Source: Escherichia coli
Lineage (GTDB): Bacteria; Pseudomonadota; Gammaproteobacteria; Enterobacterales; Enterobacteriaceae
Strand: one strand, 5' to 3'
Assembly (NCBI RefSeq): GCF_001677475.2
Contig: NZ_CP015229.1
Length of the DNA: 64,000 bases
The translations under genes and the position numbers were made by a program. The notes under the pieces were generated by a model. It ran no database searches. It was not told the origin of the DNA and saw only the letters and a list, made by a program, of their open reading frames with translations. Shown here in pieces: positions 38,444 to 56,897 of this stretch; position 1 is the first letter of the stretch; the number at the start of each line of letters is the position of its first letter.

Positions 38444-38450
38444 ACAAATA

Positions 38451-39191
38451 TTATTGTGCTGCAGGTGTTTTAGCGGGTTGTTGATCCACAGGTTCTAACT
38501 GGAAGACCACATCGACCTGATCATCAAACTGAATAGCGGCCTGCTCGTAAGTTTCCTGGGCGGACACCGGCGCGGCATCGGCTTTCATCATCCGCACCAT
38601 TGGGCTGGGCTGATAGTTGGAAACATGGTAGCGCACGCTATATACCGGCCCCAGTTTACGATGAAAGCCGTTCGCCAGTTCCTGCGCCTGATGAATCGCG
38701 TTATCAATCGCTGCCTTACGCGCTTTGTCTTTATAGGCATCCGGCTGCGCCACGCCCAGCGACACAGAACGAATTTCGTTAAGACCCGCCTTCAGCGCGC
38801 CATCCAGCAAGGAATTCAGTTTGTCTAACTGACGGAGCGTGACTTCCACCGTTCTCACAGCACGGTAGCCTTTCAGGATACTTTTACCATCCTGATAATC
38901 ATAATCTGGCTGGGTGCGTAAGTTCGCTGAGCTGATATCTTTTTTCGCGATCTGATTGAGTTCAAGGAAGGAAATGTATTGTGCGACGCGCTCATCCGCC
39001 TGTTTCTTGGCAGTAGCGGCATCCTTCGCGGCCACGTTGACTTCAATCGCAAGAGTGGCAATGTCTGGCACCGCATCCACGCTTGCCGTACCGGAGGTGA
39101 CAATATGCGGTCCATCCGGCAATTCGTTAGCCTGCGCTGCCATCCCGCTAATACCCATTAATGCCGCCAGGGCGATAACTTTGAACTTCAC
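38451..39191 (-). CDS. yggE: periplasmic DUF541/SIMPL-like protein YggE, 246 aa
   Basis: ORF 38451..39191; N-terminal signal peptide. Confidence 0.85.
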   Translation of the reverse strand: MKFKVIALAALMGISGMAAQANELPDGPHIVTSGTASVDAVPDIATLAIEVNVAAKDAATAKKQADERVAQYISFLELNQIAKKDISSANLRTQPDYDYQDGKSILKGYRAVRTVEVTLRQLDKLNSLLDGALKAGLNEIRSVSLGVAQPDAYKDKARKAAIDNAIHQAQELANGFHRKLGPVYSVRYHVSNYQPSPMVRMMKADAAPVSAQETYEQAAIQFDDQVDVVFQLEPVDQQPAKTPAAQ

Positions 39192-39283
39192 GTTAGTCTC
39201 TCCGTGTTAATTGACTTGCCTAAAATTCAGGACCTCTGGAGGCAAGCTTAGCGCCTCTGTTTTATTTTTCCATCAGATAGCGC

Positions 39284-39919
39284 CTAACTGAACAAGGCTT
39301 GTGCATGAGCAATACCGTCTCTCGCCAGCTGCAAAGCAATAAACCACATAACACATCCCACTACCAGATTGATAATGCGCTGTGATTTTGCCGTGCGCAG
39401 GCGCGGTGCCAGCCAGGCTGCGAGAATAGCCAGACCAAAGAACCACAGGAAAGAGGCGCTAATTGTCCCGAGCGCAAACCAACGTTTTGGTTCCACATCA
39501 AGTTGCCCGCCAAGGCTGCCCAGCACAACAAAAGTATCCAGGTAAACATGCGGGTTCAGCCAGGTCACTGCCAACATGGTGGCGATAATTTTCCATCTGC
39601 CTTGCTTCAGGACTTCGGCACTGGCTAACTCAATGTTACTGCTCATTGCTGTTTTAAAAGCGCCAAAACCATACCACAGCAAGAAGGCTACGCCGCCCCA
39701 GGTGACCAGCGCCAGCAACCACGGCGACTGCATCAATAACGCGCTGCCACCAAAAATCCCCGCGCAAATCAGGACCAAATCGCTGATAGCACAAAGTAAG
39801 GCAATCATAATGTGGTACTGACGACGAATGCCCTGATTCATCACAAAAGCATTTTGTGGACCGAGCGGTAGGATCATAGCTGCGCCAAGCACAAGACCTT
39901 GAAAGTAATAAGAAAACAC
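39284..39919 (-). CDS. argO: arginine exporter ArgO (LysE family), 211 aa
   Basis: ORF 39284..39919; multi-TM LysE-type sequence. Confidence 0.9.
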
Positions 39920-40004
39920 GTTGTATATTCCGAATTAAGTATCTGATGCAGAGACTATATCGCGGGATTGTTATTAGCGGAAATTGATAATATTAATTGG
40001 CAAT

Positions 40005-40048
40005 CAGAAAAACTAATAAGAGAGAGGCCAGAGAGTATTATCTGGCCT
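40005..40048 (-). terminator. hairpin downstream of mscS
   Basis: Perfect 8-bp stem AGGCCAGA/TCTGGCCT; T-rich tract on the minus strand about 10 nt after the stem. Confidence 0.45.
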
Positions 40049-40057
40049 CAGCGTTGA

Positions 40058-40918
<861 letters not shown>

Positions 40919-41050
40919 TCAATATTCCTTTTCAACTGACTCAAAATGGAGAAATACACTCCGCCGCCTTATGACGGGCAGTCTGACAAGGGTAAACAAT
41001 AAAGCATAATTTTGCCAAATAGATCACAGATTTCTCATCTGTATCACCTT

Positions 41051-41250
41051 GCTTTTGGCGAAAAATCCCCGCAGAGCGGGGCTCAGACAGATATCAATGT
41101 GCGCTTTGTCATGCCGGATGCGGCGTGAACGCCTTATCCGGCCTACAAAAACCTGCAAATTCAATATATTGCAGGATACGTGTAGGCCTGATAAGCGTAG
41201 CGCATCAGGCAACTTTTCTTTTGGCGAAAAAAAGACCCGCAGAGCGGGCC
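41051..41250. repeat. REP pair (BIME/RIP-like) bracketed by a ~30-bp direct repeat containing a small hairpin
   Basis: REP unit TGCCGGATGCGGCGTGAACGCCTTATCCGGCCTAC and inverted unit TGCCTGATGCGCTACGCTTATCAGGCCTAC; flanks TTTTGGCGAAAAA..CCCGCAGAGCGGG at 41054-41083 and 41220-41250. Confidence 0.8.
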
Positions 41251-41274
41251 TTGAGATAAGCAGAAAGGAATATC

Positions 41275-42354
41275 TTACAGAACGTCGATCGCGTTCAGTT
41301 CCTGGAATGCTTTTTCCAGACGAGCGATCATCGAAGTCTGACCGGCACGCAGCCATACACGCGGATCGTAGTATTTCTTGTTCGGCTGATCTTCGCCTTT
41401 CGGGTTACCCAGCTGACCCTGCAGATAAGCTTCGTTTGCTTTGTAGTAGTTCAGAACGCCTTCCCAGGTTGCCCATTGGGTATCGGTATCGATGTTCATT
41501 TTAACTACGCCGTAGCTTACGGAGTCTTTGATTTCCTGAGCAGTAGAACCGGAACCACCGTGGAATACGAAGTTCAGGCTGTTGTGCGGCAGGTTGTGTT
41601 TCTTAGAAACATATTCCTGAGAATCACGCAGGATGGTCGGAGTCAGAACCACGTTACCCGGCTTGTAAACACCGTGTACGTTACCGAAGGACGCTGCGAT
41701 GGTGAAACGCGGGCTGATTTTGCTCAGCTCGGTATACGCATAATCAACGTCTTCCGGCTGGGTGTACAGTGCAGAAGCGTCCATGTGGCTGTTGTCCACG
41801 CCGTCTTCTTCACCACCGGTGCAACCCAGTTCGATTTCCAGAGTCATGCCGATTTTGGACATGCGCTCCAGGTATTTAGAGCAGATTTCGATGTTCTCTT
41901 GCAGAGATTCTTCAGACAGGTCGATCATGTGAGAAGAGAACAGCGGCTTGCCGGTAGCTGCGAAGTGTTTTTCACCCGCGTCCAGCAGACCGTCGATCCA
42001 CGGCAGCAGTTTCTTCGCGCAGTGGTCGGTGTGCAGGATAACCGGAACACCATAATGTTCAGCCATCTGGTGAACGTGATGCGCACCAGAGATCGCGCCC
42101 AGGATAGCAGCACCCTGCGGAACATCAGATTTCACGCCTTTACCAGCGATAAAGGAAGCACCACCGTTGGAGAACTGAACGATAACCGGCGCTTTAACTT
42201 TAGCAGCGGTTTCCAGTACGGCGTTGATGGAGTCAGTACCGACGCAGTTTACTGCTGGCAGTGCGAAGTTGTTTTCTTTTGCTACCTGGAAAACTTTCTG
42301 TACGTCATCACCAGTGATTACGCCAGGTTTTACGAAATCAAAAATCTTAGACAT
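41275..42354 (-). CDS. fbaA: fructose-bisphosphate aldolase class II, 359 aa
   Basis: ORF 41275..42438; start at MSKIFDFVKPG (ATG 42354..42352) gives the K-12 length. Confidence 0.95.
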   Translation of the reverse strand: MSKIFDFVKPGVITGDDVQKVFQVAKENNFALPAVNCVGTDSINAVLETAAKVKAPVIVQFSNGGASFIAGKGVKSDVPQGAAILGAISGAHHVHQMAEHYGVPVILHTDHCAKKLLPWIDGLLDAGEKHFAATGKPLFSSHMIDLSEESLQENIEICSKYLERMSKIGMTLEIELGCTGGEEDGVDNSHMDASALYTQPEDVDYAYTELSKISPRFTIAASFGNVHGVYKPGNVVLTPTILRDSQEYVSKKHNLPHNSLNFVFHGGSGSTAQEIKDSVSYGVVKMNIDTDTQWATWEGVLNYYKANEAYLQGQLGNPKGEDQPNKKYYDPRVWLRAGQTSMIARLEKAFQELNAIDVL

Positions 42355-42380
42355 GTCTCTTGTCCTGTATCGTCGGGCCT

Positions 42381-42507
42381 TATACTCGTCATACTTCAAG
42401 TTGCATGTGATGCGTCTGCGTTCGCTCACCCCAGTCACTTACTTATGTAAGCTCCTGGGGATTCACTCTCTTGTCGCCTTCCTGCAACTCGAATTATTTA
42501 GAGTATG
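42381..42507. repeat. ERIC/IRU element, short ~127-bp form, in the pgk-fbaA intercistronic region
   Basis: Contains both ERIC core strings (ATGTAAGCTCCTGGGGATTCAC and the reverse complement of AAGTAAGTGACTGGGGTGAGCG); inverted relative to the copy at 30323..30520. Confidence 0.85.
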
Positions 42508-42568
42508 AAAAAGTGCGTGCTTTAAAAGCGCGCTGCAACAAGGGCAGGTTTCCCTGCCCTGTGATTTT

Positions 42569-43732
42569 TTACTTCTTAGCGCGCTCTTCGAGCATCGCTA
42601 CTGCAGGCAGTACTTTACCTTCCACGAATTCGAGGAATGCGCCGCCGCCAGTGGAGATGTAGGAGATTTTGTCAGCAATGCCGAACAGGTCGATTGCTGC
42701 CAGAGTGTCGCCGCCGCCAGCGATGGAGAACGCTTCGCTGTCTGCGATAGCGTTAGCCACGATTTCAGTACCTTTGCGGAAGTTCGGGAATTCGAACACG
42801 CCAACCGGACCGTTCCACAGAATGGTTTTCGCATTCTTCAGGATTTCAGCCAGTTCCTGAGCGGAAGCATCACCGATATCCAGGATCTGCTCGTCAGCTT
42901 TCACATCGTTAACAGATTTCAGGGTAGCCGGTGCAGTTTCAGAGAACTCGGTTGCTACGCGAACATCAGACGGAACCGGGATGTTGCAGGTGGTCAGCAG
43001 ACGTTTAGCTTCGTCAACCAGGTCAGCTTCGTAAAGGGATTTACCCACATCGTGGCCTTGTGCCGCGATAAAGGTGTTAGCGATACCACCACCAACAATC
43101 AGCTGGTCAGCGATTTTAGACAAGGAGTCCAGAACGGTCAGTTTGGTAGATACTTTAGAACCACCAACGATAGCCACCATCGGGCGAGCAGGTTCTTTCA
43201 GTGCTTTACCCAGCGCGTCCAGTTCAGCTGCCAGCAGCGGGCCTGCGCACGCAACGTCAGCGAATTTACCGATACCGTGAGTAGAAGCCTGCGCGCGGTG
43301 AGCAGTACCGAATGCGTCCATTACGAACACGTCACACAGTGCAGCGTATTTTTTGGACAGGGTTTCGTCGTCTTTCTTCTCGCCTTTGTTGAAGCGAACG
43401 TTTTCCAGAACAACCAGTTCACCTTCAGCAACGTCAACGCCGTCGAGGTAATCTTTAACCAGACGAACCGGGTTAGACAGTTTGTCTTTCAGGTAGTTAA
43501 CAACCGGCAGCAGAGAGAATTCTTCGTTGTACTCGCCTTCGGTAGGACGACCCAGGTGGGAAGTTACCATCACTTTTGCGCCTTGTTTCAGGGCCAGTTC
43601 GATGGTCGGCAGAGAAGCACGGATACGCGCATCGCTGGTTACTTTCCCGTCTTTTACTGGTACGTTCAGATCCGCACGGATAAATACACGTTTCCCAGCA
43701 AGATCCAGATCGGTCATCTTAATTACAGACAT
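42569..43732 (-). CDS. pgk: phosphoglycerate kinase, 387 aa
   Basis: ORF 42569..43795; start at [11 protein letters not shown] (ATG 43732..43730). Confidence 0.95.
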
Positions 43733-43781
43733 GGTGAATCCTCTCGTTGATTCTAAAAGTTTTGCAGACGCTGCTTGCGTC

Positions 43782-44801
43782 TTACCTGAAAGCAACAGTA
43801 GCCATAGCTAACGTCGTGTCGAGCATTCGGTTAGCAAAGCCCCATTCGTTATCGCACCAGACCAACGTTTTGATCAGGTGTGCACCACTGACCCGGGTTT
43901 GGGTGCCATCGACAATGGCACTGTGCGGATCGTGGTTAAAATCTACAGAGACCAACGGCAATTCCGTATAGTCAACTATACCATGAAATGCACCTTGTGC
44001 TGCTTTTTGCAGCAACAGGTTGACTTCATTGGCTTTTACAGGTTTCTTCACCGTCACGCTTAAATCGATTGCCGTCACATTTATGGTTGGCACACGTACC
44101 GCAATCGCCTCAAAGCGATCGTTAAATTGCGGAAAAAATCGTGTGATACCGGCGGCCAGTTTAGTATCGACCGGAATGATCGACTGGCTGGCTGCCCGGG
44201 TGCGACGCAGGTCAGGATGGTATGCATCAATAACCTGTTGATCGTGCATGGCGGAGTGAATTGTGGTCACAGTGCCGGACTCAATACCGTACGCATCATC
44301 TAACAATTTGATGACGGGAATTATGCAATTCGTGGTACAGGAAGCGTTAGAAACGATGCGGTGTTCCGCACGAAGTTGATCCTGATTGACGCCGTAAACA
44401 ACGGTCGCGTCGAGATCGTTACTGCCAGGATGTGAAAAGAGCACTTTTTTAGCCCCGGCGGCAATGTGCGCTTCGCCATGCTCGCGGGAGCCATATACGC
44501 CGGTGCAGTCGAGGACTACATCAACGCCAAGTTCACGCCAGGGGAGCGATTGCAGTGAACGTTCATGCAATACGCGGATGGCGTCATCACCAACAAAAAG
44601 TTGATCGCGTTCCTGTCGTACTTCCCATGCAAAACGGCCATGGCTGGTGTCATATTTCAACAAATGCGCCATGCCCGCAGCATCCGCCAGTTCGTTGATT
44701 GCCACCACGGTAATTTCCGCCCGACGTCCGGATTCATACAAAGCACGAACCACATTACGCCCGATGCGACCGAAGCCATTTATCGCTACGCGTACGGTCA
44801 T
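43782..44801 (-). CDS. epd: D-erythrose-4-phosphate dehydrogenase, 339 aa
   Basis: ORF 43782..44885; start at [15 protein letters not shown] (ATG 44801..44799); GAPDH-family Rossmann motif. Confidence 0.9.
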
Positions 44802-45028
44802 AGATCTCCTGCAAGGTTTTCCCTGAGCAAATTTGCCAGACAGAGTAATCCAGCAAATCGTCCGGGGAAACCTTACCTGTCGCAAACTGCGACTGATTGG
44901 TTAATTGTCGAACATTTAATCGACTGAAACGCTTCAGCTAGGATAAGCGAAACGTGGAATAAAAGGAATGATTGTCCAGTCAAAGAAGACAATTATCTGA
45001 CTTACGTCACGTTTTCAGCCCCGCCCCT

Positions 45029-45044
45029 GTGGAATTTATTCCAC
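45029..45044. promoter_or_regulatory. candidate operator: inverted repeat GTGGAAT-TT-ATTCCAC, with an extra GTGGAAT half-site at 44954..44960
   Basis: Perfect 7-2-7 inverted repeat in the divergent epd / PPC-ECF operon spacer; no binding factor identified. Confidence 0.3.
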
Positions 45045-45172
45045 TTTGCAGAATCACGAATAAGCGTAGCAAAATCTTTTCGTTGTGCCGTCACAAACCC
45101 TGACTTATATCAGAATATGACTGATGCAGCGTCGATATTATCCGCAATACGTCCGAGTTTCGGAGTACTCCA

Positions 45173-45604
45173 ATGATGACATTGCCCTACCCATATTCTT
45201 CCTCCGCACGCTTTTACTCGCTGCGCCTGCTCCCCGGGCAGGAAGTTCTCTCCCAATTGCGCGCCTTCACGCAGCAACAACAACTCCACGCCGCGTGGAT
45301 TGCAGGTTGTACCGGCAGTCTGACTGACGTCGCCTTACGCTATGCCGGACAAGAAAACACGGCCCTACTAAGCGGTAAGTTCGAAGTCATCGCATTGAAC
45401 GGCACGCTGGAACAGAGTGGTGAACATCTTCATCTCTGCGTTTCCGATCCACACGGCACGATGCTTGGCGGTCATATGATGCCCGGCTGTACCGTGCGGA
45501 CCACGCTTGAACTGGTGATCGGCTGCCTTGAGGAACTGGCGTTTAGCCGCCAGTCTTGCGCGCTTTCTGGTTACGACGAGTTGCATATTTCCCCCGTTAA
45601 ATAA
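45173..45604 (+). CDS. PPC/DUF296-like domain protein, 143 aa (first gene of the island operon)
   Basis: ORF 45173..45604; GGAG 9 nt upstream; domain assigned from memory of the family (AAWIxGCxGSL, HLHLCVSDPHG, GGH..PGCTV). Confidence 0.7.
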   Translation: MMTLPYPYSSSARFYSLRLLPGQEVLSQLRAFTQQQQLHAAWIAGCTGSLTDVALRYAGQENTALLSGKFEVIALNGTLEQSGEHLHLCVSDPHGTMLGGHMMPGCTVRTTLELVIGCLEELAFSRQSCALSGYDELHISPVK

Positions 45605-45626
45605 CTACTTTCAGAGAGGTTTTCTT

Positions 45627-46205
45627 ATGGCGCGTCGCCACTTTTCCAGTCAGGCGTTGGTGTTGATCGTTATATCTATCGCCATCAATATGATCGGCGG
45701 GCAACTGGCCAGCATGGTCAAATTACCTATATTTCTCGACTCCATCGGCACACTTATTAGCGCGGTACTGCTTGGTCCGGTGATCGGGATGCTGACCGGC
45801 TTACTGACCAATTTACTCTGGGGATTGCTAACCGACCCGATCGCCGCCGCATTTGCGCCCGTCGCGATGGTCATCGGCCTGGTCGCCGGTTGGCTGGCGC
45901 GAGCGGGTTGGTTCCGCACCCTGCCAAAAGTTGTTGTCAGCGGCGTGATTATTACGCTTGTGGTAACGGTCGTCGCTGTACCGCTGCGTACTGCGCTGTT
46001 CGGCGGTGTCACCGGTAGCGGAGCCGATTTGTTCGTTGCCTGGATGCACTCAATGGGGCAAAACCTGGTGGAGTCGGTGGCGATTACGGTGATAGGCGCG
46101 AACCTGGTCGATAAAGTTCTCACAGCGGTGATTGTCTGGCTTTTACTGCGTCAGCTGCCGATTCGCACCACGCGCCATTTTCCGGCAATGGCAGCCGTGC
46201 GCTAA
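45627..46205 (+). CDS. ECF-transporter substrate-specific (S) component-like membrane protein, 192 aa
   Basis: 3' part of ORF 45528..46205; start at MARRHFSSQ (ATG 45627) with GAGAGG upstream; about 6 hydrophobic helices. Confidence 0.65.
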   Translation: MARRHFSSQALVLIVISIAINMIGGQLASMVKLPIFLDSIGTLISAVLLGPVIGMLTGLLTNLLWGLLTDPIAAAFAPVAMVIGLVAGWLARAGWFRTLPKVVVSGVIITLVVTVVAVPLRTALFGGVTGSGADLFVAWMHSMGQNLVESVAITVIGANLVDKVLTAVIVWLLLRQLPIRTTRHFPAMAAVR

Positions 46206-46913
46206 ATGCATCCGTTTACCTCATTAACGCTGTGGGCGCTGGCAGCCTGCACCACGCTAATCCTGCCCGCGCAGACCATTTTGCCGGTCTATAGCGCGGC
46301 GACCTTTCTCTGCCTTATTGCGTTAAAGTCCACGCGGCGGCGAGCAAAATATGTCGTCTGGCTGATGTTCTCGCTGGGGGCTGGACTGTGGCTGGTACAC
46401 GGTGGCTGGCTGACAGAATGGCTAAGCGGCACGCCACGCTCGCCAGAACGGTGGGCGCATGCTATTACGCTCTGGTTGCGGATTCTGGCGATTGTTTCAA
46501 CCTCGCAGTTGTGGATGCAATTCGTCCCCGTGCAACGTTTTATCCGCGCTTTGTTTGCTTCTCGCCTGCCGCCAGGCGTCGCTTATCTGTTTGCCGGGCC
46601 GTTATTGGTCGTTGAGCAGTTAAAACGGCAATTAGCGATTATTCATGAAGCGCAGCGTGCCCGCGGCGTGCCTCTGGATGAGGGCTGGTATCAACGTTTA
46701 CATGCGATGCCCGCGTTAATTATTCCGCTAACACACAATGCGCTAAACGATCTTGCTGTCCGTGGTGCGGCGCTGGATATGCGGGCATTTCGGATCCACA
46801 GCCGACGAACAACGTTGTGGGCACCAGCCGATAGCCCCCTACAACGCGTAGCGCGTTACACCATGATCTTGCTGATGCTGGCAGAATTCGGAGCGTGGAT
46901 ATGGTTACGTTAG
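46206..46913 (+). CDS. ECF-transporter transmembrane (T) component, CbiQ/EcfT family, 235 aa
   Basis: ORF 46206..46913; start abuts the previous stop (TAAATG); C-terminal coupling-helix motifs QRARG and AVRGAA. Confidence 0.75.
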   Translation: MHPFTSLTLWALAACTTLILPAQTILPVYSAATFLCLIALKSTRRRAKYVVWLMFSLGAGLWLVHGGWLTEWLSGTPRSPERWAHAITLWLRILAIVSTSQLWMQFVPVQRFIRALFASRLPPGVAYLFAGPLLVVEQLKRQLAIIHEAQRARGVPLDEGWYQRLHAMPALIIPLTHNALNDLAVRGAALDMRAFRIHSRRTTLWAPADSPLQRVARYTMILLMLAEFGAWIWLR

Positions 46914-47578
46914 AACAGTTTCGCTATTGCCCGACAAACTCAACGCATCCTCCGTTCTGTTATGACTTTCACTATGTCAAACCGGGGATAGTCGCCATCT
47001 TTGGTGACAACGGCAGTGGCAAAAGTACGCTGGCGCAACTGATGGCGGGCTGGTATCCAGACTTTCTACCAGGAGAGATAACCGGCACGGGGACACTTCT
47101 CGGTACGCCCATTGGGCATCTCCCGCTTAATGAACAATCCGCCACCATCCAGCTCGTCCAGCAATCGCCCTATTTGCAGCTCTCCGGCTGTACCTTTAGC
47201 GTGGAAGAAGAAGTTGCCTTTGGGCCAGAAAATCTGTGTCTTGCTGAAAAAGAGATTATGGCGAGGATTGATGCCGCCCTGACTCTGAGCGAGTGCCAGC
47301 CGTTGCGCCATCGACACCCGGCAACACTCTCCGGTGGAGAGACACAGCGCGTGGTCATCGCCTGCGCTATCGCGATGCAGCCAAAACTATTAATTCTTGA
47401 TGAAGCCTTTAGCCGCCTGACGCCGCAGGCCAGCGAAATGCTGTTGCAGCGCTTACAACACTGGGCGTTTGAACGTGGTTCGCTGATTATTCTTTTTGAA
47501 CGTCATCGCACACCTTTCCTGAACTACTGCCAGCAAGCGTGGCAACTGCAAAACGGAGCGCTCCAGCCACTATGTTAA
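46895..47578 (+). CDS. ABC ATPase (EcfA-like), 227 aa
   Basis: ORF 46895..47578; Walker A GDNGSGKST, signature LSGGETQR, Walker B LLILDEA; overlaps the T gene by 19 nt. Confidence 0.85.
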   Translation: MDMVTLEQFRYCPTNSTHPPFCYDFHYVKPGIVAIFGDNGSGKSTLAQLMAGWYPDFLPGEITGTGTLLGTPIGHLPLNEQSATIQLVQQSPYLQLSGCTFSVEEEVAFGPENLCLAEKEIMARIDAALTLSECQPLRHRHPATLSGGETQRVVIACAIAMQPKLLILDEAFSRLTPQASEMLLQRLQHWAFERGSLIILFERHRTPFLNYCQQAWQLQNGALQPLC

Positions 47579-48249
47579 CGTTAAATCAGGTAACTTATCG
47601 CTGGCCTGGCGCGGCAACGGATTGTCTTTGCGACATTTCTCTGCAACTCAAACAAGGCGAATGGCTGGCGCTGACCGGCGACAATGGCGCAGGGAAATCG
47701 ACGCTGTTACGAGTAATGGCAGGTCTTCTTACGCCCACAGCCGGTACAGTTATGCTGCAACAACAGACGATGAAAAACCTGAAAAACCGCCAGCGCGCGG
47801 CAAAGATTGGCGTACTGTTTCAGGAAGCGGAAAACCAGCTTTTTCACAGCACCGTCGCTGACGAGATCGCATTTGGTTTGAAACTGCAAAAATGCCCGGC
47901 GGATGAAATCACTCAACGTACCCATGCTGCCCTGCAATGCTGTCAGTTAGCAGACACTGCCAGCGCGCACCCGTTGGATCTGCATAGTGCGCAGCGACGG
48001 ATGGTCGCCGTCGCCTGCCTGGAAGCACTCTCTCCGCCACTATTGCTGCTGGACGAGCCGAGTCGGGATTTTGACGAAAATTGGTTGAGCGTGTTTGAAA
48101 GCTGGCTGGAGAAGTGCCGCCAGCGAGGCTCGAGCGTCGTAGCAATCAGTCATGACGCCGCATTTACCCGGCGTCATTTCTCTCGTGTGGTGCGACTGGA
48201 AGATGGTGTAATCAGGAACGTTAATCCACCAGACGATATTCACCCGTAG
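47572..48249 (+). CDS. ABC ATPase (EcfA'-like) with a degenerate signature motif, 225 aa
   Basis: 3' part of ORF 47539..48249; start at MLTLNQVTY (ATG 47572, ATGTTAA overlap with the upstream stop); Walker A GDNGAGKST, Walker B LLLLDEP, H-loop ISHD; signature position reads LHSAQR. Confidence 0.8.
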   Translation: MLTLNQVTYRWPGAATDCLCDISLQLKQGEWLALTGDNGAGKSTLLRVMAGLLTPTAGTVMLQQQTMKNLKNRQRAAKIGVLFQEAENQLFHSTVADEIAFGLKLQKCPADEITQRTHAALQCCQLADTASAHPLDLHSAQRRMVAVACLEALSPPLLLLDEPSRDFDENWLSVFESWLEKCRQRGSSVVAISHDAAFTRRHFSRVVRLEDGVIRNVNPPDDIHP

Positions 48250-48934
48250 CGGTCATCATTAAAGTCAAATTTGCAGGCAGACTCTCTTCCAGCACCCGGC
48301 GAACATTCGGCCCGTCGGTACGGTCATAAAAAGCTTCTGCGTCTGCCAGTGATAACCCTCCCGCCAGCTTGCGCCCCACCAGTCGTTCCCGCAACGCAGT
48401 AGCTGGCGCATTGATAAAGATCGAGAAATCACAAAATTGCGCAAGCTGGCACCACTTCTCGTCGTCCAGCAACAACCAGTTTCCTTCGACGATGACGAGT
48501 GGTGCGGTAACGTGCAACGCATCTTCAACAGGATCATGCTTTTGTCGATCATACTGCGGCCACGCACAATCCCCTTCCACTACCTGGCGCAGGTTTTCCG
48601 CCAGTTTCGCTACATCGAATGTCTCTGGTGCGCCTTTGAAGGGGCGCAATTGATGCGCATCCAGCCAGCTATTGTAATGGTGAAAACCATCCATCGGGAG
48701 TGTCTGAATAGCGGGTAGTTCCGGGTCTTGTTGCGCGAGATATTCCCAGAAGGTGGTTAGGGTAGATTTACCCGTCCCCGGCGGAGCGCAAAGAAAAACC
48801 ACCGTACGCCGCTGCGGATTTACCGTCTGTAAGGCCGCCAGCATACGCAGTAGCGTTTTATGAACATTCTCAATTTCATCATCAGAGTACTGCGCCTGTA
48901 CCTTTAGTCCATTCACCGTCAGTTCGATTTTCAC
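48221..48934 (-). CDS. yggC: P-loop nucleoside/pantothenate kinase-like protein YggC, 237 aa
   Basis: ORF 48221..48934; P-loop GTGKST; 3' end overlaps the convergent EcfA' gene by 29 nt. Confidence 0.85.
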   Translation of the reverse strand: MKIELTVNGLKVQAQYSDDEIENVHKTLLRMLAALQTVNPQRRTVVFLCAPPGTGKSTLTTFWEYLAQQDPELPAIQTLPMDGFHHYNSWLDAHQLRPFKGAPETFDVAKLAENLRQVVEGDCAWPQYDRQKHDPVEDALHVTAPLVIVEGNWLLLDDEKWCQLAQFCDFSIFINAPATALRERLVGRKLAGGLSLADAEAFYDRTDGPNVRRVLEESLPANLTLMMTATGEYRLVD

Positions 48935-49440
48935 GGCGTTAATTCCTTTAAGGTTGTCGTTACTGCCAGCGTCAGCGCCGTTTTGACCATCCCGCTAAAA
49001 CGCGCCTCTGACCAGACGGCGAAATCGGCGAACTTCATCGCTTTCAACGCGTCATAGAGCGTCGCATTGCGGATTATGCTATTGACGTTGCTGATAAAAT
49101 CCCAGGTCATGTCATCGGCAAATCCGGGCATTTCATCCTGTTCGTTCAGGTAATGCCAGAACTGGGAAAAATGCGTGATATCGGCGTACAGCCATTTATC
49201 CATTTTCCCCAGCGCATAAATCAAACGCAGTGCAACATCAATATCGTCAAGCGGGCCGCTTTGGGCGAGTAACGGCTTCACTGCATATTCGACGATCTCT
49301 TCATCATTATCGACAAACAGCGACGGCAGAAACTGGCGTATCCCCTGGAGCAAAATAGAATGCGCAGTTTTCATAAATGAAAATAAATTGTCCTGTGCCT
49401 CCAGTTGCTCAAGCACATCATCTTCTGTCAGCGTCGCCAT
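48931..49440 (-). CDS. yggD: MtlR-like putative transcriptional regulator YggD, 169 aa
   Basis: ORF 48931..49440; 4-nt overlap with yggC. Confidence 0.85.
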   Translation of the reverse strand: MATLTEDDVLEQLEAQDNLFSFMKTAHSILLQGIRQFLPSLFVDNDEEIVEYAVKPLLAQSGPLDDIDVALRLIYALGKMDKWLYADITHFSQFWHYLNEQDEMPGFADDMTWDFISNVNSIIRNATLYDALKAMKFADFAVWSEARFSGMVKTALTLAVTTTLKELTP

Positions 49441-49461
49441 TGGTCTTCCGATAGATCACCA

Positions 49462-50427
49462 TCAATGCAGGGAGTCTATTATATTACACGTTTGGTCCGC
49501 GCCGCCGATCAGTAATGTCTGCGTCCGCACCCCATTCGCCGTCTGTTGGATTCCGTTCACCAACTCGCCGCCCGTCACGCCCGTAGCGCTAAAGAGGATA
49601 TCGTTCCCCCTCACCAGTTCATCGAGCGAGTACACACGGTTAACGTCAACGCCCATTTCCTTGCAACGCTTGCGCTCCTGCTCTGCAATCTGCCGATTTT
49701 CCGTGTAATCCCCTTTAGCCTGACAAAAGTCAATCAGCTCGGCCTGCATATCCCCGCCTAATGCTTTAACGGCACAGGCAGAAATCACGCCTTCTGGCGC
49801 ACCGCCGATGGTGTACATCACATCGTAAGGATTATCCTGCCAGCAGGTCAGCACGCTGGCGGCGACATCGCCATCCGGCAGGGCAAAAACCTTCACGCCC
49901 AGCTGTGTTGCTTCCTCAATTGCGGCACTCAGGCGCGGTTTATCCAGCGTAACCATACGCAGCTTGTCCAGCGGTTTGCCTAACGCTTTCGCCACGTTGC
50001 GCAAGTTGTCCGCCAGAGGCATGGACAGATCAATCGCGCCCGCCGCCAGCCGATTAACAACCAGTTTTTTCATATACATATCGGGCGCGTGTAACAGGCT
50101 ATCTCGAGGGGCGAAAGCCATGACCGCCAGCGCATTGCTCTGCCCCATCGCCACCATCCGCGTGCCTTCAATGGGATCGACCGCGATATCGACTTCTGGC
50201 CCATCGCCTTTGCCCACCTCTTCGCCAATCCACAGCATCGGCGCATGGTCAATTTCTCCCTCGCCGATAACCACTCGCCCACGAAAAGCGACGTCGTTCA
50301 ACGCCTGGCGCATCGCGGTGACCGCCAGGCCGTCGATTTTGTTTTTATCGCCACATCCGGTTTGCGGCCAGGCAGCCAACGCTGCCTGTTCCGTAACGCG
50401 AAATAATGGCCACGCCAGGGACATCAT
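49462..50427 (-). CDS. yggF: class II (GlpX-type) fructose-1,6-bisphosphatase YggF, 321 aa
   Basis: ORF 49462..50427. Confidence 0.85.
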   Translation of the reverse strand: MMSLAWPLFRVTEQAALAAWPQTGCGDKNKIDGLAVTAMRQALNDVAFRGRVVIGEGEIDHAPMLWIGEEVGKGDGPEVDIAVDPIEGTRMVAMGQSNALAVMAFAPRDSLLHAPDMYMKKLVVNRLAAGAIDLSMPLADNLRNVAKALGKPLDKLRMVTLDKPRLSAAIEEATQLGVKVFALPDGDVAASVLTCWQDNPYDVMYTIGGAPEGVISACAVKALGGDMQAELIDFCQAKGDYTENRQIAEQERKRCKEMGVDVNRVYSLDELVRGNDILFSATGVTGGELVNGIQQTANGVRTQTLLIGGADQTCNIIDSLH

Positions 50428-51701
50428 TGCGTGGTCTCCCCAATATCAACGCCAAATTGTGCCAGCAGATATTTCTCGGCCTGTTCATTCCAGATGCCGT
50501 GCGTTTCCTCAACCAACCGCGCCAGCTCTTTAAACAGCGGATCGGTTTTGCCTTTTTCGGCAAAATCGGCAATGGCAGTGAGCGGCATGGTCACGCCGTT
50601 ATAAATGAGTTTTTTACCGCCAGGGATATCCGGCAGATTGAGCACGGTTTCTGGCACCGCATCCAGGCCACCAATATGGGTCACCATAAACGACGGCTGT
50701 AACTGTCCTGTGGCGCTAAGGGCAATCGCCTCTTTCATGTCGTCCGTTGAACCGCCAGATGTACCGACGACGTGCGTGCTGTTGTAATGGACGTTGTAGA
50801 AATTAAACGGCACTTTGAAGTTTTTATCCGTCGGACCGGCAAAGAAGTTCAGACAGCCATCTTCCGCCAGTAATTCGTCAGCCATCTCAACGACAGCAGG
50901 CACCGCCGCATAAACAAAAATGTCATCGAACCCGGCATCTCCTGTAAGCGCCCGCAGCATCTGGACTGGATCGCTCATCCCTTTGGTATTCACATACACC
51001 AGCTCAATGCCTTTACTAGCCGCCAGTTCCACCGGCAGCAGCTTCTGTACCTGCGCCAGGCGTTTGTCGTCGATATCGACCACCACCACCCGCGACGGTT
51101 GTATGCCACCGTTAATGGCGTAATCGATAGCGCCAATGCCCATTGGACCAGCACAGGCCAGCAGTGCAATATTGCCGCCAGGTTTGACGCCCATGCGATG
51201 CTCATAAACATATTGCGTGGTGTGATAATTGGCATGATAAGCGCCAATAATGCAGCACATAGGCTCTGCCAGCGACGCAGCAGCAAAATAAGAGCCGTGA
51301 TACGGTAATACGCAGCCCAAATTAATGGCTACCTCTGGAATAATCATATAGGTGGCGTTACCGCCAAAATATTCGTAGCTGTAGCCCGCTGAATATCCGC
51401 TTGGTAACCCCATTGCCGGTTGCAATACAAAACGCTGGCCTTTTTTATATTTGCCGGTGAGATTTTTACCCACTTCAACAATAACCCCGGCACATTCATG
51501 TCCGGTAATGACCGGATGATTTTCTAAATCGTCGGATACGCGTTTATGTTCACTACCGAGTAACGCCGCTTTCCAGGTGGATAAACAGACGCTGTCAGAA
51601 ATTACACTCACTAACAGTTCATTATCGGTAATTTCTGGCAGTTCAAATTCGCGCAGACGGACATCCCGCTTGCCATAAATAGCAGCAACTTTGGTTTTCA
51701 T
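50424..51701 (-). CDS. yggP: Zn-dependent polyol/sugar-phosphate dehydrogenase (MDR family) YggP, 425 aa
   Basis: ORF 50424..51701; 4-nt overlap with yggF. Confidence 0.85.
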   Translation of the reverse strand: MKTKVAAIYGKRDVRLREFELPEITDNELLVSVISDSVCLSTWKAALLGSEHKRVSDDLENHPVITGHECAGVIVEVGKNLTGKYKKGQRFVLQPAMGLPSGYSAGYSYEYFGGNATYMIIPEVAINLGCVLPYHGSYFAAASLAEPMCCIIGAYHANYHTTQYVYEHRMGVKPGGNIALLACAGPMGIGAIDYAINGGIQPSRVVVVDIDDKRLAQVQKLLPVELAASKGIELVYVNTKGMSDPVQMLRALTGDAGFDDIFVYAAVPAVVEMADELLAEDGCLNFFAGPTDKNFKVPFNFYNVHYNSTHVVGTSGGSTDDMKEAIALSATGQLQPSFMVTHIGGLDAVPETVLNLPDIPGGKKLIYNGVTMPLTAIADFAEKGKTDPLFKELARLVEETHGIWNEQAEKYLLAQFGVDIGETTQ

Positions 51702-51715
51702 TTTTACCTCTGTAA

Positions 51716-53104
51716 TCAGTGTTTATGTTCGGCGGTTAATTGATTAAATAAAGTGTCGAGTTTTGGATCGCCAATATAGTTACTAATCAATATCAGTGGT
51801 TTATCCGTCACACGTTTCACGCGCCCTTCCAGACTGGCATGAGTAACGACGATATCCGCATCCGCAGGCACGTTTTCTATCGCGTAATGTTTTACTTCAA
51901 TTGCCAGCCCCGCTTTTTCCAGGCGTTTACGGAAGGTGGTCGCGCCCATCGCACTGGAGCCCATCCCCGCATCGCAAACAAAGGCGATACGCTTAACCTT
52001 GCTTAACGAGAATGCACCTTCTTGTTTCATCGCCTTAACCGCATTGGCTGACTGAGCAAACTCATATTCGCTCTCCGTTTCCACCGTTTTTTCCATCTTC
52101 AGTATCAGCGAAGTGATAGCAAAGGACACCAGGGTACCTACCGTAACACCGGCAATTGTCGCCAGGAATGAGCCTTTCGGCGTCAGCGCCAGGTAAGCAA
52201 AGATAGACCCCGGACTTGGGCCAGCCACCAGACCACCGTCCAGTAAGTTAAACATCCAGGTGCCAGACATACCGCCCGCAATCATGGCAATAATGGTCAG
52301 CGGCTTCATCAGCACATATGGGAAATACAGTTCGTGGATCCCACCGAGGAAGTGAATAATCATCGCCCCGGGCGCAGAACGTTTACTCATCCCTTTACCA
52401 AACAAGGTAAACGCCAGCAGCAGCCCCAGGCCCGGACCTGGGTTAGAGGCCACCATAAAGAAGATGGATTTACCGTTAACCGAAGCCTGTTGCATTCCCA
52501 GCGGATAATAGACGCCCTGATCGATCGCGTTATTGAGGAAAAGCACTTTCGCCGGTTCATTGATGACTGACAGCAGAGGCAGATAACCCGCATGTACCAG
52601 CGCCTCAATACACTCTTTGACGAAAGTATTGGCAATTAACACCGCCGGGCCGATCACTTCAAAACCCAGCAGACAAAGGAGCATCCCCGCGATACCTAAT
52701 GAGAAGTTATTGATAACCATCTCAAAACCGGCAGGTATGCGTTTTTCCAGTGCCTTATCGACATATTTTATGACCAGACCACCGAGCGGCCCCATAATCA
52801 TCGAACCAAGGAACATCGGGATCTCTGCGCCGACGATCACACCAATAGTACCTATTCCGCCCATGACCGCCCCGCGTTTACCGCCGACCAGATGACCACC
52901 GGTAGAACCAATCATCACGGGCAATAAATAGGTAATCATCGGGCCGACAATTTTGGCGAAATGTTCATTCGGCAGCCAACCGGTGGGAATAAATAACGCA
53001 GTTATAAAACCCCAGGCAATAAAAGCACCGATATTGGGAATGACCATTGCAGTCAAAAAGCCCCCAAAAGCCTGGACCCTTGCACGAGCAGACTTGTTTT
53101 CCAT
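51716..53104 (-). CDS. cmtA: PTS mannitol-family EIICB component (cryptic), 462 aa
   Basis: ORF 51716..53104; polytopic N-terminal domain plus C-terminal EIIB with conserved Cys (AFVCDAGMGSS). Confidence 0.9.
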   Translation of the reverse strand: MENKSARARVQAFGGFLTAMVIPNIGAFIAWGFITALFIPTGWLPNEHFAKIVGPMITYLLPVMIGSTGGHLVGGKRGAVMGGIGTIGVIVGAEIPMFLGSMIMGPLGGLVIKYVDKALEKRIPAGFEMVINNFSLGIAGMLLCLLGFEVIGPAVLIANTFVKECIEALVHAGYLPLLSVINEPAKVLFLNNAIDQGVYYPLGMQQASVNGKSIFFMVASNPGPGLGLLLAFTLFGKGMSKRSAPGAMIIHFLGGIHELYFPYVLMKPLTIIAMIAGGMSGTWMFNLLDGGLVAGPSPGSIFAYLALTPKGSFLATIAGVTVGTLVSFAITSLILKMEKTVETESEYEFAQSANAVKAMKQEGAFSLSKVKRIAFVCDAGMGSSAMGATTFRKRLEKAGLAIEVKHYAIENVPADADIVVTHASLEGRVKRVTDKPLILISNYIGDPKLDTLFNQLTAEHKH

Positions 53105-53131
53105 AATATTATCCTGTAGAGGAGAGAGTCA

Positions 53132-53575
53132 TTATCCGCGGCTGATTATGTCCGCTAATTGTTTTTCTGATGATGCTGTTAAGAGTTGTTCGAGTATTTC
53201 TTCTTCGCTCAGTAATTCACTTAACGCCTGAATAGCGCCAATGTGCGAATCGGCATCGGCAGCAGAAAGCCCGATGAGTAATTTAATCGGTTCGTCATTC
53301 CCCGGGAAATAAACGCCTTGTTTAAGTAACGTTAAAGACATCCCGGTTTTAAGCGCCCCACATTCCGGTCGAGCATGAGGCATTGCCACGCCTGGTGCGA
53401 GAATATAATAAGGACCATTGCTGATGGTGGAGTCTTTAATAGACTGAATGTAATTCTCGCTGATATAGTTTTTATCCAGCAATGATGCCATCGAGAAATC
53501 GATAGCTTCCTGCCAATCTTTTGCTGAATGTATAACTGAGATTGATGATTCTGGAAAATAATCAATAAGCCGCAT
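53132..53575 (-). CDS. cmtB: PTS mannitol-family EIIA component (cryptic), 147 aa
   Basis: ORF 53132..53575; EIIA-Mtl active-site His region (VAMPHAR). Confidence 0.9.
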   Translation of the reverse strand: MRLIDYFPESSISVIHSAKDWQEAIDFSMASLLDKNYISENYIQSIKDSTISNGPYYILAPGVAMPHARPECGALKTGMSLTLLKQGVYFPGNDEPIKLLIGLSAADADSHIGAIQALSELLSEEEILEQLLTASSEKQLADIISRG

Positions 53576-53951
53576 AAATTATCCTTATTTTATTTTTAGG
53601 GTACCGTCCGGCGGTAAAAATAAAATACTCGTGCGGTTTAATGAAAGCAATTGGGTACGCGAGAAGAAAAACCCCATGAACAAAAATAATAAAACTTTAA
53701 ATAACAACAACATGAAATTGATATTTTTAAAGTCAACTTTGTATTTGTTATGTTTATCACAAAATCAACATTTTGATTGTTGTTGTATTTGTGATGCATA
53801 TCGCCATTTATTTATTGAATGTCCGAAAACATACTTTTTTAATGCAATGTTTTTTCGCTATACCCCTTTATAGATTCTGAATTCTCACCTGTCGGCTATT
53901 TTCTCCTCACCTCATGTGACATATTCCCCACTTTACTCAAGGAAGATTCAT

Positions 53952-54860
53952 ATGAAAGCACCTGTTTCATTAACCTCATTTCGCCCACAAAAATCTATTG
54001 CTATCGCCATTGGCGTGCTTGCCGTGGTTGTGCTGCCATTTCTCTCGTATTACACCGTTAATGAAGGTGAACGCGGCATTTTGCTGCGCTACGGAAAAAT
54101 CGTAAAAGTTGCCGAGCCGGGTCTGGGTTTTAAGATCCCTTTTATGGAAAGCGTGGAGAAAATTTCCACGCGTAATCAGGCTGTGGTTTATCAGGGATTA
54201 CAGGCCTACAGCCGCGACCAGCAACCGGCACAAATGACAGTATCAGTCAGCTTCCACATTAAACCTTCAGAAGCTGGCGCAGTTTATACAACCTACAACA
54301 CCATTGAATCTTTAAAAGAGCGTCTGATCGTCCGCCAGCTGCCAACCCAACTGGAGAACGTTTTCGGGCAATATACAGCCATCAGCGCGGTACAGGATCG
54401 TACAAAACTGGTTCAGGATCTGCAAAATGCCATGCGTAAAGCCGTTGTTGGCCCGGTGGTGATTGATGGTGTTCAGATTGAAAATATTGATTTTTCTGAC
54501 GCTTATGAAAAATCGATTGAAGATCGAATGAAAGCAGAAGTCGCCATTGCCACACGTAAGCAAAATCTGGAAACAGAGAAAATCCAGGCGCAAATAGCGG
54601 TAACTCAGGCCCAGGCAGAGGCAGACAGTAAACTGGCGGCAGCCAAAGCAGAAGCGGAAACTATTCGCGTAAGAGGCGCGGCAGAGGCTTAAACTATTCG
54701 TTTAAAAAGTGCGGCTGAAGCAGAAGCGATCCGCCTGCGCGGTGAAGCTCTGCGGGATAATCCCGGACTTGTTGCCCTCACCACTGCTGAGCGTTGGGAC
54801 GGTAAGCTACCCGATACCATGATCCCCGGCAGTACAGTTCCGTTTATCTCTACTAAGTAA
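53952..54860 (+). pseudogene. SPFH/band-7 (prohibitin-like) membrane protein gene interrupted by an in-frame TAA at 54690..54692
   Basis: ORF 53916..54692 (start probably ATG 53952 with AAGGAAG upstream); N-terminal TM helix, SPFH-like core, AEA-rich tail; the same frame continues 54693..54860 (55 codons); the stop sits where the upstream repeat copy has GAA. Confidence 0.65.
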
Positions 54861-54885
54861 AAAAAGGGCCGATTTCGCGGCCCTT
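54859..54885 (-). terminator. tktA intrinsic terminator
   Basis: Stem GGGCCG/CGGCCC (54866-54883) followed on the minus strand by a 7-nt T-run (plus-strand A-run 54859-54865). Confidence 0.7.
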
Positions 54886-54905
54886 CTCACAAAGCATCTT
54901 ACCGA

Positions 54906-56897
54906 TTACAGCAGCGCTTTGGCTTTCGCAACAACGTTGTCAACGGTGAAGCCGAACTCTTCAAACAGCAGTTCTGCCGGAGCAGATTCACCGAAGGTGG
55001 TCATGCCGACGATAGCACCGTTCAGGCCAACATACTTGTACCAGTAGTCAGCAATGCCAGCTTCCACCGCAACGCGTGCAGTAACCGCTTTCGGCAGTAC
55101 GGATTCACGGTAAGCCGCATCCTGCTTGTCGAATGCGTCGGTAGACGGCATGGAAACCACGCGCGCTTTCACGCCTTCGGCAGTCAGTTTTTCGTAGGCA
55201 GCAACCGCCAGTTCAACTTCAGAACCGGTAGCGATGAAGATCAGTTCCGGCTGACCGGCACAGTCTTTCAGCACATAACCACCGCGCGCGATGTTTGCCA
55301 GCTGCTCTTCAGTACGTTCCTGCTGCGCCAGGTTCTGACGGGAGAGGATAAGCGCAGTCGGGCCGTCCTGACGCTCAACGCCGTATTTCCACGCGACCGC
55401 GGATTCAACCTGGTCACACGGACGCCATGTGGACATGTTCGGGGTCACGCGCAGAGAAGCGACCTGCTCTACCGGCTGGTGAGTCGGGCCATCTTCGCCC
55501 AGACCGATGGAGTCGTGGGTGTAAACCATCACCTGACGCTGTTTCATCAGCGCAGCCATACGTACGGCGTTACGTGCGTATTCCACGAACATCAGGAAGG
55601 TGGAGGTGTACGGCAGGAAGCCACCGTGCAGGGAGATACCGTTAGCAATCGCGGTCATACCGAACTCGCGAACACCGTAGTGGATGTAGTTACCCGCAGC
55701 ATCTTCGTTGATTGCTTTAGAACCAGACCACAGGGTCAGGTTAGACGGTGCCAGGTCAGCAGAGCCGCCGAGGAATTCCGGCAACAGCGGACCGAACGCT
55801 TCAATCGCATTCTGAGACGCTTTACGGCTGGCGATTTTCGCCGGATTAGCCTGCAGTTTAGCGATGAATTCTTTCGCTTTGGCGTCGAAGTCAGACGGCA
55901 TTTCGCCTTTCATACGGCGGGTAAATTCAGCGGCTTCCTGCGGATAAGCTTTCGCGTAAGCCGCGAATTTCTCGTTCCATGCGGATTCTTTCGCCTGGCC
56001 TGCTTCTTTCGCATCCCACTGAGCATAGATTTCAGACGGGATTTCGAACGGTGCATATTTCCAGCCCAGCTGTTCGCGGGTCAGGGCGATTTCAGCGTCG
56101 CCCAGCGGCGCACCGTGGGAGTCGTGCGTACCGGCTTTGTTCGGGGAACCGAAACCGATGATGGTTTTGCACATCAGCAGGGACGGTTTGTCAGTCACTG
56201 CGCGCGCTTCTTCTACTGCGCGTTTGATGGATGCCGCGTCATGACCGTCGATGCCGCGAATAACGTGCCAGCCGTAAGCTTCGAAACGCATTGCGGTGTC
56301 GTCGGTGAACCAGCCTTCAACGTGGCCATCGATAGAGATACCGTTGTCATCGTAGAACGCAATCAGTTTACCCAGCTTCAGCGTACCCGCCAGAGAGCAA
56401 ACTTCGTGGGAGATACCTTCCATCATGCAGCCGTCGCCCATGAAGGCGTAGGTGTAGTGGTCGACGATGTCGTGGCCCGGACGGTTAAACTGCGCCGCCA
56501 GCGTTTTTTCTGCAATCGCCATACCGACTGCGTTGGCAATACCCTGACCCAGCGGACCAGTAGTGGTTTCCACACCAGCGGTGTAACCCACTTCCGGGTG
56601 ACCCGGAGTTTTAGAGTGCAGCTGACGGAAGTTTTTCAGTTCTTCCATCGGCAGATCGTAACCGGTGAGGTGCAGCAGGCTGTAGATCAGCATGGAGCCG
56701 TGGCCGTTGGACAGCACGAAGCGGTCACGGTCAGCCCAGGACGGATTCTGCGGGTTGTGTTTCAGGAAATCACGCCACAGGACTTCGGCAATGTCAGCCA
56801 TACCCATAGGGGCACCCGGGTGACCGGATTTGGCTTTCTGTACTGCGTCCATGCTCAGCGCACGAATAGCATTGGCAAGCTCTTTACGTGAGGACAT
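54906..56897 (-). CDS. tktA: transketolase 1, 663 aa
   Basis: ORF 54906..56927; start at [12 protein letters not shown] (ATG 56897..56895); TPP-binding motifs. Confidence 0.95.

Follow-up and report, generated by a model that had tools for sequence, protein, structure and literature searches.

Energy-coupling factor (ECF) importers that have been connected with queuosine precursors are the closest described systems to the locus considered here, a five-gene operon at positions 45,173–48,249 of a 64,000-nucleotide stretch of Escherichia coli DNA (assembly GCF_001677475.2, contig NZ_CP015229.1; hereafter the window). The operon lies between epd and yggC and encodes a PPC-domain protein, followed by the S and T components and two ATPases (A1 and A2) of an ECF importer. 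QrtTUVW was reportedly predicted to be an ECF transporter of queuosine precursors by Rodionov et al. in 2009, and is said to be TCDB family 3.A.1.28. In the supplement of PMC6593275, the SEED roles QrtT, QrtU, QrtV and QrtW of a “queuosine-regulated ECF transporter” are equated with “STY3230”, “STY3231”, “STY3232” and “STY3233”, respectively. Two further papers describe QrtT of Clostridioides difficile, encoded in the operon queK-qrtT-queL, as taking up preQ1, queuine and queuosine (PMC11477304, PMC11130926). The Salmonella operon is itself in print (PMC11481890) as a “putative five-gene operon” that is activated anaerobically, and PMC5372724 reports that the ECF core components do not occur in K-12. 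Note that the operon is already annotated and partly published, and is not new.

The predicted QrtTUVW transporter very probably has its prototype in the ECF part of the operon, a match made by gene order and role tags and not by sequence: STY3230–STY3233 fit the operon because these four S. Typhi genes are consecutive and ordered S, T, A, A, and the names of the Salmonella protein clusters carry no STY or Qrt labels. Both share the order S-T-A-A', a dedicated energizing module and an S component of family PF12822, and the orthologous Salmonella operon stands at epd; however, neither a preQ1 riboswitch nor a que or tgt gene was found here or in the related loci scanned, and the leading PPC gene is not among the QrtTUVW role descriptions, where these are readable. 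The C. difficile operon queK-qrtT-queL likewise combines a PF12822 S component with soluble proteins that process the imported compound, and the adjacency of a nucleoside hydrolase gene to the S gene, as in queK-qrtT, is found again among relatives of the window S, in about 57 of 80. It differs in that qrtT relies on a shared ECF core, has a preQ1 riboswitch and is partnered by a hydrolase and a radical S-adenosylmethionine (SAM) lyase, whereas the window operon has a dedicated module and no riboswitch, with PPC as the sole partner. The CD3073/CD3072 pair (NF045596 and NF045597) resembles the operon in that an S gene is paired with one small soluble protein, but this partner is a TudS relative instead of PPC, and the window S reaches 138 bits against a family cut-off of 180. 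CbiMNQO and NikMNQO have a CbiM/NikM-type S component together with CbiN or NikN; the window operon has neither.

Our analysis confirms the five genes and their arrangement as a single operon, which encodes an ECF-type uptake system and a small soluble PPC protein, and shows that the linkage of PPC and ECF genes is conserved; the conserved linkage is among the new findings. Taken as a whole, the locus reads as an ancestral five-gene operon for the FNR-type-controlled import of a nucleoside-like micronutrient, with PPC as a metal-dependent cytosolic partner, a reading to which we assign a probability of about 0.6.

A dedicated importer linked to a PPC gene

The preliminary description of this DNA had reported five close-packed plus-strand genes between epd and yggC that would be transcribed as one operon. 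The open reading frames (ORFs) of the window agree in number and starts with the RefSeq (PGAP) annotation of the orthologous O157:H7 locus, where the products are named PPC domain-containing DNA-binding protein, S component, T component and two ABC transporter ATP-binding proteins; the gene order is fbaA, pgk and epd (minus strand), the five plus-strand genes, and then yggC-fumE-glpX-yggP-cmtA (minus strand). The junctions, as read from the sequence, also bear out a single operon: a 22-nt gap with the ribosome-binding site GAGAGG separates PPC from S, and the junctions TAAATG (S to T) and ATGTTAA (A1 to A2) are as described earlier. The 19-nt overlap that had been given for T and A1 holds only for a GTG start of A1 at 46895, upstream of the ATG at 46901; with the ATG used by PGAP the overlap is 13 nt. 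For each of the five genes, dN/dS is 0.03–0.15 in comparisons with Salmonella, Citrobacter, Klebsiella and Atlantibacter, indicative of purifying selection.

Using a PPC alignment, we scanned one genome per species and obtained 80 PPC-anchored loci. The S-T-A-A genes stand directly downstream of the PPC gene in 72 of these loci, with S proteins 54–99% identical to that of the window; the linked loci span Enterobacteriaceae, Budviciaceae, Morganellaceae (Proteus, Providencia, Morganella), Aeromonas and Rhizobiales (Aminobacter, Brucella, Mesorhizobium, Rhizobium). PPC proteins are most distant (36–46% identity) in the eight loci that lack ECF genes. When the flanking ORFs of 28 non-epd loci were clustered, no additional co-travelling genes were found, only genus-level synteny. 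A second scan, of metagenomes, captured S proteins 40–50% identical to the window S; every locus with enough room has a dedicated S-T-A-A module. Where at least 450 nt were available on both sides, a PPC gene accompanied the module in 12 of 25 loci and a TudS-related gene in 3 of 25, and the two were seen together at no locus. Among all the metagenome loci, the PPC gene is upstream and co-directional, as in E. coli, in 7 cases and downstream and convergent in 11, and all 18 proteins retain the pattern H-x-H...G[GA]H. The earlier suggestion that PPC might be a specific partner of the ECF module is thus strengthened, since the linkage is kept far beyond Escherichia.

The assignment of the five products to PPC, S, T and two ATPases, as first proposed, holds in Pfam, NCBIfam and Protein Data Bank (PDB) profile searches. 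The S component matches ECF_trnsprt (PF12822, E 1.8e-8) and is 88–91% identical at the amino-acid level across Enterobacteriaceae; in a search of its family profile against the PDB, the nearest solved relatives are the FolT structures 5D0Y (7.6e-9) and 5D3M. The T component matches CbiQ (PF02361, E 3.6e-4) and has coupling motifs ARG (residues 152–154) and VRG (residues 186–188), so that one of the two ARG motifs in the preliminary description stands and the second is VRG. The top matches of both ATPases are ECF ATPase models, under the equivalog cut-offs. The motifs of A1 are canonical, and the relatives keep LSGG[QE] in A1; the A2 signature is degenerate family-wide, with DLSPTWRK, NLPLSVRK and similar strings in relatives, so that this ECF subfamily would combine a consensus ATP site with a degenerate one. 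With a PF12822 S component, a CbiQ-type T component that has two X-Arg-Gly motifs, and two ATPases, the operon is by its gene content a dedicated (group I) ECF-type ABC importer, with transport as the predicted activity (Table 1).

Table 1. Features of the operon and of its upstream region, in window coordinates
Feature	Coordinates	Strand	Remarks
PPC/PCC-domain protein, 143 aa	45173..45604	+	PF03479, E 3e-26
ECF S component, 192 aa	45627..46205	+	PF12822; QrtT/CD3073-like, distantly FolT-related
ECF T (transmembrane coupling) component, 235 aa	46206..46913	+	CbiQ, PF02361; PGAP name on orthologue
ABC ATPase A1, 225 aa from ATG	46901..47578	+	Walker A, LSGGE, Walker B; start as PGAP in O157
ABC ATPase A2, 225 aa	47572..48249	+	Walker A and B intact, signature LHSAQ
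CRP/FNR-family-like box, CTGACTTATATCAG	45100..45113	+	consensus of other genera CTGATTTATATCAG; cf. TTGAT-N4-ATCAA
Putative -10 hexamer, TATTAT	45136..45141	+	conserved ATATTAT/ATATGAT block in the intergenic alignment
Palindrome or short hairpin of the 5' untranslated region, ACGTCCGAGTTTCGGAGT	45149..45166	+	UCCGA/UCGGA stem, 3-nt loop, includes Shine-Dalgarno GGAG

Several further observations concern the components. Whereas the ATPases of Escherichia, Salmonella, Citrobacter and Buttiauxella are about 225 aa long, their counterparts from Morganellaceae, Budvicia, Rhizobiales and the environment have about 270–285 aa; by this comparison the proteins of Enterobacteriaceae lack about 50 C-terminal residues, and they are under purifying selection nonetheless. 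S-like domains of the family are fused to T in some relatives (S-T fusions of about 460–490 aa) and are also seen N-terminally in PAS/histidine-kinase sensors; the latter suggests that the ligand-binding membrane domain has been reused for signalling. Sulfur-related genes occur within a few kb of the block in three alphaproteobacterial loci (one from Rhizobium smilacinae), among them genes for a PLP enzyme of Cys/Met metabolism, for an SsuA-like binding protein together with an ABC transporter, and for an Rrf2 regulator; this sample is too small to interpret.

The PPC protein and the upstream region

The PPC protein belongs to its family by domain match and by fold, and PCC (PF03479) is its sole Pfam domain. 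It is about 78% identical to the Salmonella structures 2HX0 and 2NMU, which, like its Vibrio relative 2P6Y (V. cholerae VCA0587) and 2DT4 (P. horikoshii), are PPC/DUF296 proteins from structural genomics; the AlphaFold2 (AF2) model has a pLDDT of 94.8. The invariant residues are H85, H87, H101, R18, R56, E71, D92, T110, T111, E113 and R126. In the AF2 model, H85 and H87 are on strand 83–91, and H101 is on the adjacent strand 97–102. The nearest non-PPC folds are enzymes, and the fold resembles that of the zinc-dependent acetolactate decarboxylase (4BT2, 6INB). That enzyme is about 100 residues longer, a sequence link to it is undetectable (a profile search of the PDB returns only PPC proteins), and catalysis by PPC is hypothetical.

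Plant AHL proteins, from which the “DNA-binding” name derives, contact DNA through their AT-hooks and not through the PPC domain. The window protein has no AT-hook (R-G-R-P), helix-turn-helix (HTH) or other DNA-binding module in its 143 residues, as judged from the sequence and Pfam. We therefore favour a metal-dependent enzyme or ligand binder that would act on the imported compound, rather than a DNA-binding protein, because the His triad is invariant, AT-hook and HTH are missing, and an enzyme-like TudS relative is the alternative partner of this transporter family. As a precedent, the dedicated ECF importer of the Bacillus subtilis ykoFEDC operon is encoded together with YkoF, a small soluble protein that binds ligand; this is an analogy only, as the fold and the substrate (thiamine/hydroxymethylpyrimidine) are unrelated. 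Nothing on the function of bacterial PPC proteins was found in the literature searched.

The upstream region was examined in an alignment of the epd–PPC intergenic sequences of ten genera. The CRP/FNR-family-like box is near-invariant in the 10 genera, and that of the window differs by one change from CTGATTTATATCAG, a sequence similar to the FNR consensus TTGAT-N4-ATCAA. Its centre lies at about -41.5 from the inferred transcription start, which is class II activator geometry and agrees with the reported anaerobic activation; the sequence suggests FNR-type control of the operon. The putative -10 hexamer is not listed by a simple promoter/terminator scan, which was uninformative. Downstream of it, the conserved block 45149–45166, ACGTCCGAG-N-YTCGGAGT, covers the Shine-Dalgarno sequence; the palindrome arms are invariant in Enterobacteriaceae, with exact TCCGAGNCTCGGA in 24 loci. 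The hairpin with its flank folds at -8.9 kcal/mol, and the centre of the palindrome varies between 2 and 3 nt, also in non-epd contexts, which suits a small RNA hairpin. Both the box and the palindrome are retained away from epd, in Enterobacter sp. ENT03 and Buttiauxella, and both are absent in Morganellaceae and Rhizobiales. NarL 7-2-7, PurR and CRP operators were considered for the upstream motifs, judged by eye to give no fit, and dropped.

The alternative that survives best is that PPC is a transcription factor which responds to the compound transported and controls its own operon, for instance by binding the palindrome at 45149–45166. PPC is the only non-transporter gene that is always with the module, and in many environmental loci it is a separate convergent gene, as regulators often are; the palindrome, strongly conserved between promoter and start codon, moves with the operon to other contexts; in the absence of a riboswitch, control must be protein-based; and a thesis considered STM3071 as a regulator. 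Conversely, PPC is a single 130-aa beta-rich domain without any known DNA-binding module, its nearest non-PPC folds are enzymes, and its His triad is invariant along with Arg, Glu, Asp and Thr residues. The palindrome is missing upstream of the operon in Morganellaceae and Rhizobiales, despite an equally conserved PPC, its centre of 2 or 3 nt better suits an RNA hairpin than a dimer operator, and S components of this family otherwise pair with the enzyme-like TudS relative. We regard the regulator as unlikely, and retain the enzyme or ligand binder.

This region has other conserved elements. A Cra (FruR)-type palindrome, CTGAAACGCTTCAGC, upstream of epd at 44924–44938 is invariant in the ten genera; further conserved blocks are GGAATAAAAGGAAT at 44956–44969 and the inverted repeat GTGGAAT-TT-ATTCCAC at 45029–45044, which is partly conserved.

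Substrate of the importer

The substrate had been described as unknown. Experimentally this holds, although queuosine precursors have been predicted in print for the family, and the neighbourhoods of S homologues, a check recommended earlier, point to a class of compounds. An IU-type nucleoside hydrolase gene lies directly upstream of the S gene in the metagenome loci counted above (about 57 of 80), often as two tandem copies; a ribokinase gene (TIGR02152, 362 bits, over the cut-off) precedes the hydrolase in at least 16, a uridine-phosphorylase-like gene is present in 4, and a QPTR/YhhQ queuosine-precursor transporter gene in 4 (distant relatives). A gene for a TudS-related putative desulfidase of the CD3072 family adjoins true CD3073-family genes and also an S-T-A-A module of 45% identity; no gene of this type was found in the window or in the loci L016–L095. 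In a rough neighbour-joining tree, the enterobacterial and rhizobial S proteins share a clade in which every member is preceded by a PPC gene. This clade is sister to the hydrolase/ribokinase clade, many members of which also have PPC, and the TudS-linked S proteins lie further out. Since genes of nucleoside metabolism accompany the related modules, a nucleoside-like compound is the best-supported substrate class, as judged from these relatives, and by analogy the substrate is possibly queuosine-related.

A different proposal, raised by older “cobalt transport” annotations and by the thesis on the Salmonella operon, is that the operon encodes an importer of cobalt or another metal, with the His-rich PPC as a cytosolic metal acceptor or sensor. 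The T component and the ATPases match CbiQ and CbiO models, the PPC His triad could bind metal, anaerobic induction parallels nik and cbi biology, and the literature says that the transporter was “suggested to import Co2+”. However, CbiQ/CbiO-type matches are generic to all ECF energizing modules, whereas the S component is in PF12822 with FolT as nearest solved relative and gave no CbiM/NikM-class match in NCBIfam, Pfam and PDB profile searches; cobalt import is unlikely because of this lack of resemblance to the metal class. Its N-terminus is MARRHF and not the Met-His metal-binding N-terminus of CbiM and NikM, the operon ORFs include no CbiN/NikN partner or small extra membrane gene, and relatives of S are found beside genes for nucleoside hydrolases, ribokinase, QPTR and TudS-like proteins rather than beside those of metal enzymes. 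A metal substrate is thus very improbable, and a nucleoside-like one is preferred.

The following points weigh against our overall reading. With 138.1 bits, S stays below the cut-off of NF045596 even though this is its best curated S family. Neither nucleoside hydrolase nor ribokinase, tgt or que genes adjoin the operon in the window or in the 72 linked genome loci (que and tgt genes were likewise missing from the window and from 25 related loci). Rfam revealed neither a preQ1 riboswitch nor one of another kind, whether at E<=1 in 44700–48400, which agrees with the earlier remark that a riboswitch-like leader is missing, or at the gathering score in the 25 related loci, where the only match was one tRNA. 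With no riboswitch found, the queuosine link comes from relatives that are 40–50% identical and from a database role name. Among the well-covered metagenome modules, 10 of 25 have neither PPC nor a TudS-related gene, and the neighbours of PPC genes that lack ECF partners (Bacteroidota and others) are uninformative, with no pattern. The likening of the His triad to the zinc site of acetolactate decarboxylase is tentative and draws on the similarity of the folds. Finally, a thesis proposed cobalt transport with STM3071 as the regulator.

History of the locus and its significance

The block is present in 3319 of 5426 complete E. coli genomes (61%), in single copy and at the epd–yggC locus, and is missing from about 39%, K-12 included. 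The absence from K-12 had been given correctly in the preliminary description; in all block-less genomes inspected, K-12 among them, one common fixed spacer of 284 nt separates epd and yggC. In contrast, the claim that the block was inserted between these genes did not survive, as the same locus is occupied in Salmonella, Citrobacter, Klebsiella and others. The Salmonella order is fbaA-pgk-epd, PPC-S-T-A-A, tktA. The block directly adjoins epd in about 35 of the 80 genome loci, in genera and species that include E. albertii, E. whittamii, Citrobacter, Klebsiella, Kluyvera, Atlantibacter, Silvania, Superficieibacter, Pseudescherichia and Phytobacter, and yggC is also downstream of it in several Citrobacter, Silvania, Superficieibacter and Phytobacter species.

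Comparison of O157 (long haplotype) with K-12 (short haplotype) showed a left flank that is 99.4% identical up to the equivalent of window position 45010. On the right side, the last ~330 nt of yggC (window 48221–48550) are 45–74% identical, followed by 96–100%, and the C-terminus of K-12 YggC has some outgroup-like residues, which suggests recombinational replacement and not a clean deletion. The yggC gene is dimorphic in E. coli, its 3' third differing between the short and long haplotypes. The short haplotype looks like the replaced state because it is a single fixed structure with a divergent yggC 3' third. On these comparisons, the block is judged ancestral at the epd locus and K-12 to carry a derived short haplotype, which would have arisen by deletion or by a recombinational replacement that also altered the yggC 3' end.

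Acquisition of the block as a horizontally transferred islet, inserted into an originally short spacer, is hardly credible: the patchy presence in E. coli, a G+C content (0.53–0.59) slightly above that of the flanks and the Buttiauxella block, which lies away from epd with epd and yggC adjacent in one species, could be cited for it, but the same block occupies the same locus from E. albertii, E. whittamii and Salmonella to Citrobacter, Klebsiella, Kluyvera, Atlantibacter and others, the short haplotype is the single fixed structure with the divergent yggC end, and the marks of a genomic island are missing, as noted from the outset (no tRNA in 38000–56000, no integrase among the window ORFs and no repeats flanking the block).

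Two side observations concern the surroundings. YggC (window 48221–48934, minus strand) is an uncharacterised protein of a nucleoside/nucleotide kinase family (NF006742, 516 bits). Its gene faces the operon in convergent orientation, with an overlap of 29 nt between its 3' end and that of A2, and a like arrangement is seen in Citrobacter, Silvania, Superficieibacter and Phytobacter. A functional link between YggC and the operon is conceivable, given the nucleoside context of related ECF modules, yet K-12 keeps yggC without the transporter. Over the segment 44000–49500, identity with complete RefSeq E. coli genomes does not exceed about 97%; it is 96.1% with the E. albertii type strain and 92% with E. 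whittamii. The DNA thus comes from an Escherichia lineage that has no close complete-genome representative in the collection searched.

In the model that we propose, the operon would be transcribed from a start ~25 nt upstream of the PPC gene, and a CRP/FNR-type box at about -41.5 would confer anaerobic induction. Outside the cell, the S component would capture a nucleoside-like compound that is scarce there (a modified nucleobase or nucleoside, perhaps one related to queuosine), the T-A1-A2 module, with its ATPases as a heterodimer, would power import with ATP, and a trimeric, beta-rich PPC, with a three-His site like that of zinc-dependent acetolactate decarboxylase, would bind or chemically process the compound in the cytoplasm. 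The substrate class, the enzymatic or ligand-binding role of PPC and the FNR control are the parts of this model that we infer.

As a genomic feature, the operon is ordinary, a conserved and annotated accessory operon whose absence from K-12 reflects loss. At the same time, E. coli outside K-12-like strains has no other complete ECF importer, strong purifying selection acts on the operon in most enteric pathogens, and anaerobic induction has been reported for it. The additions made here, namely the PPC–ECF linkage and its conservation across phyla, the hydrolase, ribokinase and TudS-like genes with relatives, and the fold similar to acetolactate decarboxylase with an invariant His triad, replace an “unknown substrate, DNA-binding protein” by a hypothesis open to test, in which modified nucleosides would be salvaged with the help of an enzymatic partner. 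A more specific proposal, which we consider a long shot, is that PPC is a metal-dependent enzyme for a salvaged modified nucleoside or base and, in the boldest form, a non-radical-SAM counterpart of QueL or of TudS-type desulfidases. If this were true, non-K-12 E. coli, Salmonella and many Proteobacteria would salvage queuosine, queuine or another tRNA-derived nucleoside through QrtTUVW and PPC in the anaerobic gut, and it would be the first biochemical function for the PPC/DUF296 domain, including the ancestor of the PPC domain of plant AHL proteins.

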